Assembly: GCA_937868485.1 (NCBI GenBank)
Contig: CALMML010000123.1
Span: 1 to 21,717, forward strand
DNA length: 21,717 nucleotides
Reading direction: 5' to 3'
Origin: an uncultured Myxococcales bacterium
GTDB lineage: Bacteria; Myxococcota_A; Polyangia; Palsa-1104; JAEUJZ01
Numbering within the stretch: the first letter of the stretch is position 1; each line of letters begins with the position of its first letter. A model generated the notes under the pieces. That model had not been told where the DNA came from and ran no database searches. It saw nothing but the letters and a program-made list of their open reading frames with translations. A program made the translations under genes and the position numbers. Below are positions 1-21,717 of this stretch, piece after piece.

Positions 1-1346
1 CCGCGATAGCAGTCGAGCAGGCGCTGCGGCACGCTCTGCGGTACGGACAGAAACTCACCGGACAGGTGATATTCCAGGTAGAAGCGCAGCAGGTCGGGGC
101 CACTGCGGACTCCACCTGGACCGATGCCGAGCCACACAAGAAACGGTCCCAGCAGCGCGGCGGCGGTCAGCACGATGCGGAGCTGCGCACCGAGCAGATC
201 CTTTTTGGGCCGATGCAGCAGCAGATCCACCAGCAACCAGACAAAGAGCAGCCCGCTGAGCAGGTGGATGGCCGTCGCAAGGGCCAGGAGCCCGCCGAGG
301 ATCGACTGCTGCTGCCTGGCTGAGAGACGGTCAAAGCCTGGCAGACCCAGGTCGAGCAGCCCGCGATGGTGAAGGTACAGCAGCAAAAACAGGCTGCTTG
401 CCAGCTGCATGGACTCCTTTTCCTGTCCGCACAGGACCAGCTGCCAGCGTCCACGGGCGAGCAGGTAGAGCAGGCAGGCCAGGGTCGCTGTGAGCGCCTT
501 GTGGCAAGGCTGCGGCTGGAGCGCGCGGGCCGCCAGGTAGAGGAGCGCCATGTTTCCGCCCAGGCTGAACGACTCACGAACCAGCACCGCCACGAGCGGA
601 TCATCGGTGAAGAGGAGAAACGGTGCGGTGAGCGGGATGATGAGCGGATGTGCAAAGAACAGCCAGTCGCCCAGGGCTGCTGCCCGGCCTTGGTGCAGCA
701 CGTTGGCGGTCATCAGCGCATCCCACTGCGGGTCCGCACCGAAGCGAAACAAGAGCTGCGCGGCGGTCGCAAGCATCCCGATGGAAAGCGCGGGCAAGAG
801 CGGGGAGCGGCGTGGACCCAGGCTGCGCGCAATCACCTGGCTGAGCAGCGTCACTGGGAGCAGCAGGGGCGCTGCGAGGAGCAGCAGTCCGCTGGCGGTC
901 AGGATGCCGAGCACAAAGCCGTTGTTTTCGTGGAAGAACAGGGCGGCGGGGTCGGGGGCGTGCTGACCTCGGCGGGCCAAAAAGAGTCCGCCATAGCCAC
1001 CCGCAGCGAGAGCGGTCGCCATCACCAGCAGGTGCGTCCGGTGTGAAAACGCGGCGTACTCTGTCGCCAGCGCGGAGACACCTAGCAAGATCGGCGCGAG
1101 CACCGCGAGCGTGCGCTCGGGCCGGTCGTGGTCGGTGGTCGGATGGGAACCTTGGGCGTGCTGGGTCCACTTCGCGCCAAACAATCCGCCGAGCAGCCAG
1201 CACAGGACGACGACAAACCAGGCCGTGGTGCTGGCAGACAGGCCACGCATTGCCACAAAGCCAAGCGTCACCTGGATGCAGGCGAGGGCAAAGCCGGTCA
1301 CAAACGGCTCGCCGAGGCGCTGGGCTAGGGAAGGGCGCGGTGGCAT
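1..1346 (-). CDS. Polytopic integral membrane protein, 3'-partial (at least 448 aa; runs off the window start). Family not recognised. Not in the supplied ORF track because it has no stop within the window.
   Basis: Manual reverse-complement translation from ATG (plus 1344-1346) gives MPPRPSLAQRLGEPFVTGFALACIQVTLGFVAMRGLSASTTAWFVVVLCWLLGGLFGAKWTQHAQGSHPTTDHDRPERTLAVLAPILLGV... This was checked codon-by-codon for more than 90 codons with no stop; the full run to position 1 was hand-translated without an exact stop check. No complete ORF starting here is listed, which implies the frame stays open to position 1. The sequence is strongly hydrophobic with multi-TM character and GC3-rich codons. 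It starts 10 nt after the stop of the upstream minus-strand gene, consistent with operon arrangement. Confidence 0.5.
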   Translation of the reverse strand, partial: MPPRPSLAQRLGEPFVTGFALACIQVTLGFVAMRGLSASTTAWFVVVLCWLLGGLFGAKWTQHAQGSHPTTDHDRPERTLAVLAPILLGVSALATEYAAFSHRTHLLVMATALAAGGYGGLFLARRGQHAPDPAALFFHENNGFVLGILTASGLLLLAAPLLLPVTLLSQVIARSLGPRRSPLLPALSIGMLATAAQLLFRFGADPQWDALMTANVLHQGRAAALGDWLFFAHPLIIPLTAPFLLFTDDPLVAVLVRESFSLGGNMALLYLAARALQPQPCHKALTATLACLLYLLARGRWQLVLCGQEKESMQLASSLFLLLYLHHRGLLDLGLPGFDRLSARQQQSILGGLLALATAIHLLSGLLFVWLLVDLLLHRPKKDLLGAQLRIVLTAAALLGPFLVWLGIGPGGVRSGPDLLRFYLEYHLSGEFLSVPQSVPQRLLDCYR

Positions 1347-15374: not shown

Positions 15375-16265
15375 ATGAAGCGCACGCCGTTTGTGATGAA
15401 GACCGTCTTGGCCGCACTCTTTTTGACCGCAGCGACGGAAGCAGAGTCCTTCGCACTGCCGGTTGGGACTCCTGAAGAAGCGCAGCAGGCGGCTTCCCAA
15501 AGTCCAACGTGGGATGAACTGGATGCCGCAGGCGTAGACTTTACCTCGATCGTTGCGCTGTCGAACTGCTCTGGTTCGCTGGTTCGTTTTTCGACATCGA
15601 AGACCGATGACTACGCGATGGTGCTGACGAACGGTCACTGCTTGAGCGGCTTTGTTCCTGCGGGGACTGCGATTGTGGATCAGTCTTCCTCTCGTACGTT
15701 TACGCTGCTGGATGCGAGCGCGCGATCGCTTGGAACCCTGCGCGCGCAGCGAATGCTGTATGCCACGATGACGGGATCGGACTTTGCGATCTATCGACTG
15801 ACACAGACGTACGCGCAGCTTGCTTCGCGCTATCGCGTCGCTCCGCTTGTGATCTCGTCGAGTCGTCCAACGGAAGGAACTGCGATTCGGATCGCATCGG
15901 GATTCTGGAAAAAGATCTATTCCTGCTCGATCGATCGCTTCGTTCCAGAGCTACGGGAAGGAACCTGGACGTTCCGTGACTCGATACGCTTTACCCAGCC
16001 TGGCTGCGAGACGATCGGCGGAACTTCTGGATCTCCGATCATCGACTTTGAGTCGCGCGCAGTGATCGGAATCAACAACACCGGCAACGAAACCGGCGCA
16101 TCCTGCACGATGAACAACCCGTGCGAGGTCGATTCCGCAGGACGAATCTCCGCCACCAAAGGCGCCGCGTACGGTCAGCAGCTCTATCAGATCTATGCGT
16201 GCCTCGATGCCAGCAACAACATCGATCTCACCCGCACGGGCTGCACGCTGCAAAAGCCGAAGTAG
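15375..16265 (+). CDS. Secreted trypsin-like (S1 family) serine protease, 296 aa with signal peptide.
   Basis: Signal peptide MKRTPFVMKTVLAALFLTAATEA. Catalytic triad context LTNGHC (His), DFAIYRL (Asp) and GTSGSPII (Ser). The start has been re-set to ATG 15375 with the SD AAGGAGA; the track ORF began 30 codons upstream. Confidence 0.7.
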   Translation: MKRTPFVMKTVLAALFLTAATEAESFALPVGTPEEAQQAASQSPTWDELDAAGVDFTSIVALSNCSGSLVRFSTSKTDDYAMVLTNGHCLSGFVPAGTAIVDQSSSRTFTLLDASARSLGTLRAQRMLYATMTGSDFAIYRLTQTYAQLASRYRVAPLVISSSRPTEGTAIRIASGFWKKIYSCSIDRFVPELREGTWTFRDSIRFTQPGCETIGGTSGSPIIDFESRAVIGINNTGNETGASCTMNNPCEVDSAGRISATKGAAYGQQLYQIYACLDASNNIDLTRTGCTLQKPK

Positions 16266-16846
16266 TCGCAGCGGCAAGACCCAAGTACTTACTGCAGCTG
16301 TCTGTTCCGATCGGCGCGCTCCGCTTTTCAGGAAACGGCAAGTATCTGCTGGTTGTTTCGGACATCGCCCGTGTGGTGAAGATCCTGACCGCAGACACGG
16401 GTGCAGCAGTTCGGAGCATCGTACCAAAGACTGGTGATGCGTGTGCGAGTCGCTCGGTCCCTGCGCTGTCCGCTGCACTTTCGGAGGATGGAAAGACGCT
16501 GTGGACTGCGCTGCATGAAGTCCGGCAGTGGGAGCTTCGAACCGATCGATCCGCCTCGTTTGGTGCGGATGTGTTCGAGTCGTTCTTTCCTCTTGTGGAT
16601 GAGCCAATAGACAATCGGATAAGTGATCCAGCGAGCCTGATGGATAGGCCGATTGAACGTGCTCCCACGCCGATTGTGGCGCAATCGCGGCAGCCATCCC
16701 TTCTTTCTCCCAATCCTGTGCGTCTGTATTCACTGGCTTGTACGCTACTTCGCGATGTTGCATCTAAGTCAGTTGACGGAAATCTAACTGTGTCATGGGT
16801 ATCCGCGGATGAGCTGCGCGAAGCCTTGTCCGCGTGTCCCAGGTGA
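16266..16846 (+). pseudogene. Degenerate remnant of a WD40-repeat gene (two recognisable blades). It has no start codon and relaxed codon usage.
   Basis: The in-frame translation after the protease stop reads GKYLLVVSDIARVVKILTADTGAAVRSI and LSEDGKTLWTALHEVRQWELRT, resembling WD40 repeats (GxxLxSxSxDxTxKLWDxxTG). There is no ATG/SD at the beginning. Third-position GC is noticeably lower than in neighbouring genes. Confidence 0.3.
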
Positions 16847-19267: not shown

Positions 19268-20404
19268 ATGACATCGACCCATCTGGTGACTGGCGCAACA
19301 GGTTTTGTGGGCTCTGCTCTTGTGCTGGAGCTGCTTTCGCGGACAAAGGATCAGATCGTCTGCATCGTGCGACCCGGTCAAGTGGATGCAGCGACGCGCC
19401 TACAAAGCGCACTGCTGTCTGCCGCTGAGAGCTACGGTCTGCTGGAACGCCTGCGACGAGACATCTTTGAGCGCTGTCGTGCCGTCGCTGGTGATGTCGA
19501 GCAGCCCGATTGTGGCGTCGCGTCCCCGGAGCAGCTGACCTGCGATCAATTTTGGCATAGCGCCGCTTCGCTTCGCTTTGAAGATCGCTATGCGGCAGAG
19601 ATTACGCGGGTCAATGTACAAGGAACTGCGCATGCACTCGATCTGGCTGCCAAGGTGGGTGCTTCACAGTTTCATTACATTAGCACTGCGTATGTTGCTG
19701 GCTCGGACGAAGGACCGATCTTAGAGCAGAAGTCGAGCAGCGTACGGCGAAATAACTATTATGAAATAAGCAAAGCGCAAGCGGAAGAACTGGTGGAAGC
19801 TGATACGCGCTTTGGACGACGCATCTTTCGACCGAGCATTGTGATCGGTCACAGCCGTACGCTGGGCGCAACCAACTTCACAGGAATGTACGGATTTTTG
19901 CGTAAGCTGGAAGTCTTTCATGGACTGATGCAGCGTACGCAAGCCGGACTGATGCAGCGAAAGGCCCTGCGACTGCGGCTGGATGTCGGAGCGCAGCTTG
20001 ATCTGGTTCCGATTGATCGCGTGGTCGAAAACGCGGTCACGATTGCGCTGTCGGGTCGCTTGTCCGCAGGTGAGCTGGCCTACTTTCACCTGACCAACCC
20101 GCATGCACCGATCATGGAACAAGTGATCGCGACGATGTTTGATGTGGTGGGTCTGGCGGCTCCCGTGTTTGCGAGCGACAAGAGCGAGTTTGACTGGATC
20201 GACGACAAGTTCAACGAGCGCATCGACTTCTATCGATCCTATCTGATCGGACACAAGGTCTTCGATCGCTCCCAGGTGGCGCGCATCGTCGGGGATGAGC
20301 CGCGCAAGCCCTACGAGCTGCCGAATCACATCGTCGAACAGCACTGTCGCTGGTATCTGGATCGACTGAAACAGGAGCGCGCCGGACTTCCTGCTACGCG
20401 CTGA
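19268..20404 (+). CDS. Stand-alone thioester-reductase domain protein (NAD_binding_4 / fatty acyl-CoA-ACP reductase-like SDR), 378 aa.
   Basis: N-terminal Rossmann VTGATGFVGSALV. The motifs ...FHYISTAYVAG... and YYEISKAQAE (YxxxK) are typical of terminal reductase / male-sterility FAR domains. Confidence 0.7.
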   Translation: MTSTHLVTGATGFVGSALVLELLSRTKDQIVCIVRPGQVDAATRLQSALLSAAESYGLLERLRRDIFERCRAVAGDVEQPDCGVASPEQLTCDQFWHSAASLRFEDRYAAEITRVNVQGTAHALDLAAKVGASQFHYISTAYVAGSDEGPILEQKSSSVRRNNYYEISKAQAEELVEADTRFGRRIFRPSIVIGHSRTLGATNFTGMYGFLRKLEVFHGLMQRTQAGLMQRKALRLRLDVGAQLDLVPIDRVVENAVTIALSGRLSAGELAYFHLTNPHAPIMEQVIATMFDVVGLAAPVFASDKSEFDWIDDKFNERIDFYRSYLIGHKVFDRSQVARIVGDEPRKPYELPNHIVEQHCRWYLDRLKQERAGLPATR

Positions 20405-20483
20405 GGCATTGCGGCGCAGACTCATCCCAGACACCTCTTTGTTGCTTCGCGACAATGCGTACAGACTCTTGTAGGAATCTGCC

Positions 20484-21551
20484 ATGATCGATCAAGTCTT
20501 CGTTGTCGGAACAGGACGCTGCGGCTCGACGCTGATATCGAACATCCTGCGCCTTCATCCGCGCATCGCGAGCATCTCTGAGTTCTTTTCCTTCATCACC
20601 GATCTGGGCTGTCAGGTGTCTACCGCGTTTCCTTCCCATGAAGTGGACGGAGTGTGGCTGTGGCGGCTGATCTCGACGGCGTGGCCGCGTCAGAACCTGA
20701 TGATTCGCCACGATGTGGCGATGGATGAAGTGCTGTATCCGTTTCAAGGTGGTGGCGCGCATCGCTTTGATCGCAACAGTGGAGTTCCTGCGATCTCTCA
20801 GGTGACGCTGCCGCATCTTTCGGGCGAGCCGGACGCGCTGCTCGATGAGCTGGAGCCGCTGGTCTGTGCGCTTCCCAACGGAACGCCAGGCACGCTGTTT
20901 GCGCAGCTCTTTGAGCTGCTCGCCGTCCGTCAAGGCAGTGATGTCTGGGTTGAGCGCTCAGGAGGAAGTCTGCGCATCGCACATCGGCTGATCGAACACT
21001 TTCCGCGCGCGCGCTTCGTTCACATTGTTCGCGATGGTCGTGATGTCGCGCTGTCGATGAGCAAGCATCACGGCTTCAAGATGGTCCTGATCTGCTTTCA
21101 GCTACTGGAAACGCTGGGAGTCGATCCCTTTGTGTCGATGGAGCGTCGCTGGGAAGAAGACATGTCGGATGACCTGGCGTCGCTTCTTCCAGAGACCTTT
21201 TCCCGCGAGGCGTTCTTGGATTTTTCGACGCCGCCGCCGCTGTGTGGTCACTACTGGTCGGGAGAGATTCTGGAAGGTCTGAGCACGCTCGATTCCCTTC
21301 CGAAAGACAGGCTGCTGACGCTGCGCTATGAAGACTTTCTGACCGATCCCGCGCAGACCATCTCTCGGCTGATTCGCTACATCCTTCCCGCAGATCCTGG
21401 CGATGAAGCTGCGTTTGTGCGTCGCGCATCCAGCCTGTTGCGTGCTCCGTCTACGCGCTGGATTCACAGTGAAGAAAAGGCTCGTCTTCAGCTCGAAGAT
21501 GCTTGTCAGCCTGGGTTTTCATCACTGTCTGCACGCGGTCTACAGTGGTAG
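20484..21551 (+). CDS. PAPS-dependent sulfotransferase family protein, 355 aa.
   Basis: The 5'-PSB-like P-loop VVGTGRCGSTL at the N-terminus and the 3'-PB-like FVHIVRDGRDVALSM motif. The gene is 79 nt downstream of the reductase gene on the same strand, so the two are probably co-transcribed. Confidence 0.7.
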   Translation: MIDQVFVVGTGRCGSTLISNILRLHPRIASISEFFSFITDLGCQVSTAFPSHEVDGVWLWRLISTAWPRQNLMIRHDVAMDEVLYPFQGGGAHRFDRNSGVPAISQVTLPHLSGEPDALLDELEPLVCALPNGTPGTLFAQLFELLAVRQGSDVWVERSGGSLRIAHRLIEHFPRARFVHIVRDGRDVALSMSKHHGFKMVLICFQLLETLGVDPFVSMERRWEEDMSDDLASLLPETFSREAFLDFSTPPPLCGHYWSGEILEGLSTLDSLPKDRLLTLRYEDFLTDPAQTISRLIRYILPADPGDEAAFVRRASSLLRAPSTRWIHSEEKARLQLEDACQPGFSSLSARGLQW

Positions 21552-21597
21552 CTGCGACGGCACGCAGACGCGATTCCGCGTCATCGGACAGCAGATG

Positions 21598-21696
21598 GGA
21601 ATCGGTTCGGAATCGAGTAGGAATCGGTTAGGAATTGATCAGGAATTGATCAGGAATCGAGTAGGAATCGAATAGGAATCGGTGAGGAATCGCGCG
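21598..21696. repeat. Nine tandem copies of an 11-bp unit GGAAT(C/T)G(A/G)nnn (consensus GGAATCGAGTA), with an inverted copy CGATTCC at 21571-21577.
   Basis: Units counted directly: ggaatcggttc, ggaatcgagta, ggaatcggtta, ggaattgatca, ggaattgatca, ggaatcgagta, ggaatcgaata, ggaatcggtga, ggaatcgcgcg. The array starts 47 nt after the sulfotransferase stop codon. Confidence 0.8.
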
Positions 21697-21717
21697 CGAA
21701 GGACTACGCGAGCTTGT

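Follow-up and report, generated by a model that had tools for sequence, protein, structure and literature searches.

The described repeats that most resemble the array reported here are the STRR sequences of cyanobacteria, the MIRU-VNTR loci and the REP/BIME elements of enterobacteria. STRR sequences, reportedly described by Mazel and colleagues in 1990, are said to consist of contiguous heptamers with no linker between them. MIRU units are about 46-101 bp long, have their insertion sites at start codons and carry a small open reading frame that is coupled to the start downstream. REPs are hairpin-forming imperfect palindromes whose mobilisation depends on RAYT transposases. Direct repeats of 11 bp are also recognised by PhoB, CtrA and SARP proteins, and the contingency tracts of Neisseria and Haemophilus are built from 1-7-bp units within open reading frames or core promoters, where the length of the tract sets expression. 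The parC site of R1 carries 11-bp repeats in two groups of five, with one ParR dimer bound per 11-bp iteron (PMC2241845), and the Omega protein binds runs of contiguous heptads (PMC3130281).

We analyzed a stretch of 21,717 nt, called the window here, from an uncultured myxobacterium. Near its right end is an array of nine 11-bp units, which is probably one member of a family of short tandem repeats that is lineage-specific and spread across the genome. The arrays of this family follow stop codons and are comparable to STRR, MIRU or REP sequences, and their hosts are uncultured Polyangia (Myxococcota) that form a group at the level of a genus and come from activated sludge and wastewater. The properties expected of dispersed intergenic VNTRs were found: many loci, an extragenic location with no link to a class of gene, polymorphism among strains and a restricted range. 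Literature searches gave no description of the motif and nothing relevant on 11-bp intergenic tandem repeats.

The family appears to be new, and it is an analogue rather than a member of STRR, MIRU or REP because its unit type, a non-coding and weakly folding 11-bp direct repeat, is different. Like STRR sequences, the arrays are restricted to a lineage, are made of very short tandem units, occupy many intergenic sites of one chromosome and have a copy number that depends on the site. Unlike STRR sequences, they have a unit of 11 bp (rarely 12) composed of a 7-bp core, a free position and a T-T-A linker, they reside in a myxobacterial host and they are tightly tied to stop codons. With MIRU-VNTR loci they share dispersal among intergenic gene junctions, minimal disturbance of the neighbours and a strain-polymorphic copy number, but their units are only 11 bp long, are non-coding and lie after stop codons in both orientations. 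The likeness to REP/BIME is in their abundance outside genes, mostly after stops, between convergent genes or within operons, with no link to gene function. Unlike REPs, they consist of weakly structured direct repeats, and their surroundings showed no transposase.

Sequence and surroundings of the array

The array occupies positions 21598-21696 on the + strand and reads, from 5' to 3', GGAATCGGTTC GGAATCGAGTA GGAATCGGTTA GGAATTGATCA GGAATTGATCA GGAATCGAGTA GGAATCGAATA GGAATCGGTGA GGAATCGCGCG. Each unit is a 7-nt core followed by 4 nt; the core is GGAATCG in seven of the nine units and GGAATTG in the other two. The nine head-to-tail copies had been seen in the initial annotation and were confirmed by the sequence itself, by a constant start-to-start spacing of 11 nt in the repeat search and by TRF, which reported a period of 11, 8.6 copies and a score of 106, which no other tandem repeat in the window equals. 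The window has 16 occurrences of GGAATYG, compared to 6.0 +/- 2.3 in dinucleotide shuffles, and not one shuffle out of 100 gave as many. Nine of these occurrences are the in-phase array and one is a single inverted copy at 21571-21577 (- strand; CGATTCC on the + strand). The unit is non-coding, with stop codons in all six frames of the array. A CRISPR array, which would have 24-48-bp repeats and unique spacers, was rejected, as it had been in the initial annotation: the unit is only 11 bp long, including a linker of 4 nt, and the neighbouring genes include no cas gene.

Two convergent stop codons are separated by a spacer of 152 nt (21552-21703), of which the array accounts for 99 nt. On the left is a sulfotransferase gene (20484-21551, + strand, 355 aa, stop TAG at 21549-21551) that matches PF13469 (Sulfotransfer_3) and PF00685 (Sulfotransfer_1) and is also called in six assemblies. 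On the right, the gene calls of longer contigs place the last codons and stop of a convergent 417-aa gene at 21704-21717 (- strand; CTA on the + strand at 21704-21706), whose protein has no Pfam match. The spacer thus has 46 nt between the sulfotransferase stop and the array and 7 nt between the array and the convergent stop. Both distances given at first, an array 47 nt past the sulfotransferase stop and 20 nt from the inverted core, are correct. The suggestion that the array may run past the window did not hold, since the longer contigs show that it ends at 21696, with the convergent stop at 21704-21706. A sulfotransferase transcript would carry the array as GGAAUCG, and a transcript of the 417-aa gene would carry it as CGAUUCC, beginning 7 nt past its stop.

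Some local structure was found around the array. A perfect 9-bp inverted repeat, detected both in the repeat search and in RNA folds, has its left arm CGCGATTCC at 21569-21577 and its right arm GGAATCGCG, which is the last array unit, at 21686-21694 (both given on the + strand), and the pair brackets the whole array. This pairing is the dominant long-range stem in the predicted RNA folds of both strands, with modest z values of -2.1 and -1.6. The inverted core is also enclosed by a small G+C-rich hairpin, GACGCG-ATTC-CGCGTC, that was read from the sequence at 21566-21581 and has no T-run behind it. An intrinsic terminator was rejected at this location because a consensus scan of 20400-21717 returned no terminator-like site and the hairpin was not scored as one. 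No sigma-70 promoter-like site was detected in 20400-21717, and Rfam gave no match at E<=1 on either strand of 21000-21717.

Other features of the window were noted as well. A lone core-like GGAATCT, within TAGGAATCTGCC, is found at 20474-20480, 3 nt upstream of the sulfotransferase ATG and in the position of a ribosome-binding site. A 977-aa protein encoded at 7207-10140 (- strand) has a Major Vault Protein shoulder and repeat domains and is thus bacterial vault-like. Beside its gene are two paralogous genes with no Pfam match (10312-12042 and 12211-13884, both - strand), whose shared stretches are about 73% identical in nucleotides.

Array alleles in the source species

When the sulfotransferase protein was looked up, it was found on numerous contigs of wastewater and activated-sludge metagenomes and MAGs, GCA_046351615.1 and GCA_009612795.1 among them. 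The contigs compared with the window were 99.4-99.8% identical to it over 5-11 kb and, therefore, belong to the same species. Among 15 independent assemblies of this species, the array had nine distinct alleles: 10 assemblies had nine units, three had eight, one had 10 and one had 11. The initial annotation had raised the prospect of a variable copy number, and this range of 8-11 units among near-identical strains bears it out. It had also named an assembly artefact as a way in which the observation could fail. This is excluded, since the array recurs between the same flanks in all 15 assemblies, which are independent and stem from different projects. The individual allele calls come from short-read metagenomes and still need confirmation at the read level.

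The first two and last two units are constant across strains, and only interior units are duplicated, lost or altered; a point difference between GGAATCG and GGAATTG is the recurrent change. Interior change with fixed ends is the pattern expected of slipped-strand mispairing or unequal exchange within the array, and interior units would be gained and lost by one of these routes. If the array does belong to a dispersed family, it would be a ready VNTR marker for typing strains of an abundant uncultured activated-sludge myxobacterium, and arrays of this kind may contribute to assembly breaks in these MAGs.

The same polymorphism is the one point in which the locus behaves like a contingency locus, in which slippage of the array would switch a neighbouring gene on or off. 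Contingency loci are likewise slippage-prone tandem repeats with a strain-dependent copy number. However, the tract is outside and downstream of both flanking open reading frames. Placed between two gene ends, it is outside the promoters and reading frames through which such a switch would act, and no promoter-like site was found in 20400-21717. Changes by an 11-bp unit would alter neither reading frame nor promoter spacing here, and the same repeat follows many unrelated genes. We consider a contingency switch highly improbable. Of the contingency microsatellite proposed at first, the variable copy number stands; the position of the array, with convergent stops 46 nt and 7 nt away, does not suit such a locus.

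At the other end of the window (1-80), two independent Logan contigs (L139 and L141) stop at one and the same base in the same gene, about 40 nt left of the window start, so several assemblies break there. Another repeat may be present just outside the window. Leftward extension of the source genome gave only short contigs, which end about 40 nt beyond the window start.

Arrays elsewhere in the source species and in MAG-84

The source species has at least three array loci in about 31 kb, and the abundance of the family in this species is judged from that 31 kb. The second array is 2.8 kb to the right of the window end (13964-13993 of L001 and equivalents) and is made of 12-bp units, GGAATCGCAGTR. 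It lies between the stop of a cation-efflux gene and the start of a gene for an OmpR-type response regulator. Its copy number ranges from one to five units in 13 entries from 11 independent assemblies.

The third array has three units of CTGCCTGATTC (reverse complement GGAATCAGGCA, three times), 24 nt after the stop of a Trypsin_2 gene, and occurs only in strains with an intact WD40 gene. At this site (window 16265-16272; 4715-5781 of L005), a strain-level indel of about 1.07 kb has an 8-bp overlap at its junction. Several assemblies with the additional sequence carry both an intact 448-aa WD40 beta-propeller gene and the three-unit array, and the window and other strains have neither.

A scan of 185,579 species-representative genomes that required four in-phase GGAATYG cores returned 67 loci. 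Unrelated organisms with microsatellites of perfect 11-mers account for most of them. A single genome, 'Myxococcales bacterium new MAG-84' (JAEUKB01), supplied 15 loci, which are spread over 11 contigs and contain 4-16 units each. These arrays have the same core as the window array, with linkers that are specific to each array. An unbiased TRF pass over their 8-kb flanks added two more arrays (L011 7128-7238; L069 6371-6447, reverse complement GGGATCTGCCA), and MAG-84 therefore has at least 17. MAG-84 and the window organism are congeners. One of its loci (L022) is the orthologous region of the window, with 78-97% amino acid identity: 97% for NDK, 78% for a reductase, 80% for the sulfotransferase and 87-89% for the cation-efflux protein and response regulator. 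The source species and MAG-84 both have a G+C content of 0.57-0.61, which is unusually low for the phylum.

The consensus over 122 units is GGAATCG-N-T-T-A, usually 11 bp long and repeated 3-16 times. Positions 1-7 are near-invariant, which is partly due to ascertainment, since the scan demanded four perfect cores; GGRATC is retained even by arrays that TRF found independently of this pattern. Position 8 varies freely (A 53, C 32, G 29 and T 8). Positions 9-11, on which the search was not conditioned, are 77% T, 76% T and 84% A. The 4-nt variable spacer described at first is thus mostly constant in the family, where position 8 alone is unconstrained. No sequence flanks are conserved between the MAG-84 scan arrays, and an inverted core is found near an array in about three of 17. 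The upstream inverted copy at 21571-21577 had been annotated correctly and is present, but it is not a feature of the family. Inverted flanking copies as a defining feature, in the manner of MITE ends, were rejected on these same grounds.

With nine units of 11 bp, the window array resembles R1 parC in unit length and number, and a replication origin or a set of plasmid-partition iterons has to be weighed for that reason. Against this, the neighbouring genes in about 31 kb include no rep, par or dnaA and are of the chromosomal housekeeping type. The composition profile, which extends up to position 21000, has a G+C content of 0.53-0.68 and no AT-rich dip that could serve in unwinding. A congener has no fewer than 17 such arrays, distributed over 11 contigs, which excludes a replication iteron, and the iteron reading of the initial annotation, which we regard as scarcely conceivable, was given up.

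Placement at the 3' ends of genes

Gene ends in MAG-84 were predicted using a codon-usage caller that was trained on the long open reading frames of the array loci and that reproduces the database gene calls of the window. The family arrays all lie between predicted genes, in both orientations. In 16 of 18 arrays, an edge is within 30 nt of a predicted gene 3' end, compared to an expectation of 7.2%, which is the share of non-array intergenic nucleotides within 30 nt of such an end (binomial p ~7e-17). In several arrays, the stop codon of the neighbouring gene is the TAA or TAG of the first unit's linker. Among 21 arrays for which the context was listed, seven are between convergent genes, 12 are between tandem genes, one is unresolved and one, an atypical GGGATCT array, is between divergent genes. 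A Pfam search of 20 flanking open reading frames gave a family match for 16 of them, so most are clearly real genes. Their functions are unrelated and include MFS, DUF4139, peptidase, IMPase, sigma-54 activators, histidine kinase, P450 and Ser/Thr kinase. No transposase or integrase was found by Pfam among about 20 flanking open reading frames, and an association with mobile elements was rejected. The 70 nt downstream of the arrays fold no better than shuffles, and terminator hairpins behind the arrays were rejected.

A dispersed repeat with no positional association had been named at first as an outcome that would refute the proposed reading. The dispersal was indeed found, together with a positional association, which is with gene 3' ends and not with a class of gene. 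If the arrays form one family, the puzzle is that one 10-nt motif occurs in tandem, almost only within 30 nt of stops and in either orientation. Should this placement be mere tolerance, the family would be a further case of repeat DNA, selfish or neutral, that has settled where a compact genome leaves a few nucleotides free. Should it be functional, through a transcription roadblock, Rho loading or insulation, the arrays would be an unusual signal at gene ends in a phylum whose terminators are poorly understood.

One functional explanation is a role in RNA that depends on orientation, with the CGAUUCC reading acting as a Rho-loading (rut) site and the GGAAUCG reading supplying AGGA Shine-Dalgarno-like motifs before the next gene. 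In E. coli, Rho-dependent terminators have C>G bubbles of at least ~80 nt with at least four (YC)N9-13 repeats, and all the tested bubbles longer than 78 bp terminated in vitro (PMC6144790). The minus strand of the window array agrees with these descriptors, which are derived from E. coli. It is 99 nt long with 35% C and 12% G (C/G 2.9), has UC/CC (YC) dimers at an exact 11-nt period and is weakly folded, at -0.11 kcal/mol per nt. The spacer also has no intrinsic terminator consensus.

The tandem gene pairs bear on the other half of this explanation. The C-reading arrays lie 35-1418 nt from the next start, compared to 3-20 nt for three of the five G-reading arrays; in the second source-species array, the final unit is likewise at Shine-Dalgarno distance from the response-regulator ATG. 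However, this contrast in distance, though suggestive, is not significant (p ~0.15 by a hand Mann-Whitney estimate, n=12). Relative to the upstream gene, seven tandem arrays read CGAUUCC and five read GGAAUCG, which is not an orientation bias. Furthermore, the Rho rules were derived in enterobacteria, and an array between convergent genes gives a C-type tract to only one of the two. Overall, an RNA-level role seems quite unlikely.

Possible recognition of the repeat unit

The architecture of the unit raises the prospect of protein binding. Each 11-bp unit, with its 7 conserved bp and an A/T-rich linker, could bind one subunit of a winged-helix protein (OmpR/PhoB/CtrA-like) or a ribbon-helix-helix protein (ParR-like), head to tail, so that the array is a phased platform. 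The resulting nucleoprotein filament would be independent of orientation and could serve as a roadblock to transcription or an insulator where genes end, for instance, or as a chromosome-organising site. The 7+4 architecture and the 11-bp period agree with this, as do comparisons with known sites. R1 parC has the same head-to-tail period, with two sets of five units there compared to nine here, and OmpR/PhoB-type boxes also combine a conserved core with a short, less conserved linker at an 11-bp period. A free position 8 next to constrained positions 9-11 is reminiscent of a binding motif with one uncontacted base and lends weak support. Both orientations at gene ends fit a function at the level of DNA, and the arrays are depleted from divergent, promoter-only spacers (1/20).

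Other observations argue against a platform. One family array has a period of 12 bp, which departs from strict helical phasing. Both the copy number and the very presence of an array vary freely between strains and species, meaning that any function would be dispensable at a given site. An unrelated 11-bp array, ACAGAGCACAG, occupies the same kind of position. The parC repeats and OmpR/PhoB boxes are located beside or across a promoter, with a single occurrence in each replicon or regulon, whereas the window array is between gene ends and is one of many. It therefore has the 10-11-bp direct repeats with core and linker of an operator array and lacks the promoter position. A phased protein platform is possible, although we consider it improbable. 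The architecture behind the transcription-factor array proposed in the initial annotation fits and is weakly supported by the conservation of the motif. A local operator does not fit, since the array would be a genome-wide feature of gene ends.

Under the reading that we prefer, a dispersed family of repeats at gene ends, the window array would have no gene-specific regulatory role and would be gene-end filler comparable to REP, STRR or MIRU sequences. Arrays would persist at gene ends because insertions are presumably tolerated there. The bias toward stop codons and the uneven constraint at positions 8-11 are not predicted by purely neutral slippage. The motif is conserved to a degree that depends on the position, a hint that a protein may recognise it. 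The motif, conserved at 10 of 11 nt, is probably the recognition site of a trans-acting factor, which may be a DNA-binding protein or a seeder of new arrays. Such recognition would explain how the motif recurs at many loci while position 8 drifts freely.

A more speculative proposal, which we rate as unlikely, gives the arrays of TTAGGAATCG an active part. They could be a hairpin-free signal at gene ends that is specific to this myxobacterial lineage, in which a dedicated DNA-binding protein, or Rho on the C-rich reading, loads on the phased units immediately behind stop codons to end or insulate transcription, with array length tuning the efficiency and slippage driving the evolution. Alternatively, the arrays could be the product of a sequence-specific activity, nicking or replicative, with GGAATC/GANTC as its target. 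In both cases, bacteria would have a new means by which gene ends are marked or generated.

Turnover and taxonomic range

Comparison with relatives shows that arrays come and go. At the position of the window array, MAG-84 has no array, and its homologue of the 417-aa protein is 38% identical and encoded on the opposite strand. The spacer between the efflux and regulator genes of MAG-84 (5889-5948 of L022) has five 11-bp units that are unlike the second source-species array in linker, period and copy number. A 10-unit MAG-84 array that follows a DUF4139 gene (L054) is missing at that site from three related species with 79-86% amino acid identity, and synteny with these species ends exactly at the array site. 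No GGAATCG arrays were found in about 55 kb from the three species.

Between the reductase and sulfotransferase genes of MAG-84 is the unrelated 11-bp array (L022 1909-2055), 13.4 copies of ACAGAGCACAG that start 1 nt past the reductase stop and end 27 nt before the sulfotransferase ATG. The equivalent spacer of the window has no array. This suggests that 11-bp arrays behind stop codons are a broader habit of the lineage, beyond the GGAATCG motif, and the ACAGAGCACAG array could reflect a more general process.

The family has a narrow range. Of the 185,579 representatives, MAG-84 (15 loci) and a single Polyangia MAG (L033) had GGAATCG arrays with a variable linker, and the remaining matches were perfect 11-mers or belonged to unrelated families. 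Across about 195 kb of loci with sulfotransferase homologues, only one (L103), which is the source-species contig, contains GGAATCG arrays, and the more distant loci have none. A metagenome scan for further alleles returned only the contig already known and distant homologues with no arrays. A link to phages was rejected, since a scan of viral sequences gave only unrelated arrays of low-GC phages and perfect 11-mers.

Tandem repeats of other kinds were encountered in these searches. Two distant sulfotransferase homologues have short arrays that start less than ~20 nt from the end of the gene: 2.6 copies of the 11-bp GACTGAACGCC (L118 1502-1530) and 5.2 copies of the 9-bp GCCTGATGA (L119 5042-5088). 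A conserved array of three units, GGAATCG(t/g)t(t/c)g, is common to about 19 IMG/VR viral contigs with a GC content of ~0.42 (L078-L080, L082-L087, L089, L092-L098 and L101), in which its flanks are near-identical. This array may be an operator or origin repeat and is unrelated to the myxobacterial family. Finally, Bacteroidales MAG130 from horse faeces has a separate dispersed element with four to five GGAATTG 11-bp units at 13 scan loci (L008, L012, L015, L017, L024-L027, L046, L047, L052, L065 and L072). Some of these loci have conserved flanks in common, as in L025 and L046, which are 93% identical over 283 bp, and inverted CAATTCC copies lie ahead of the units in several.
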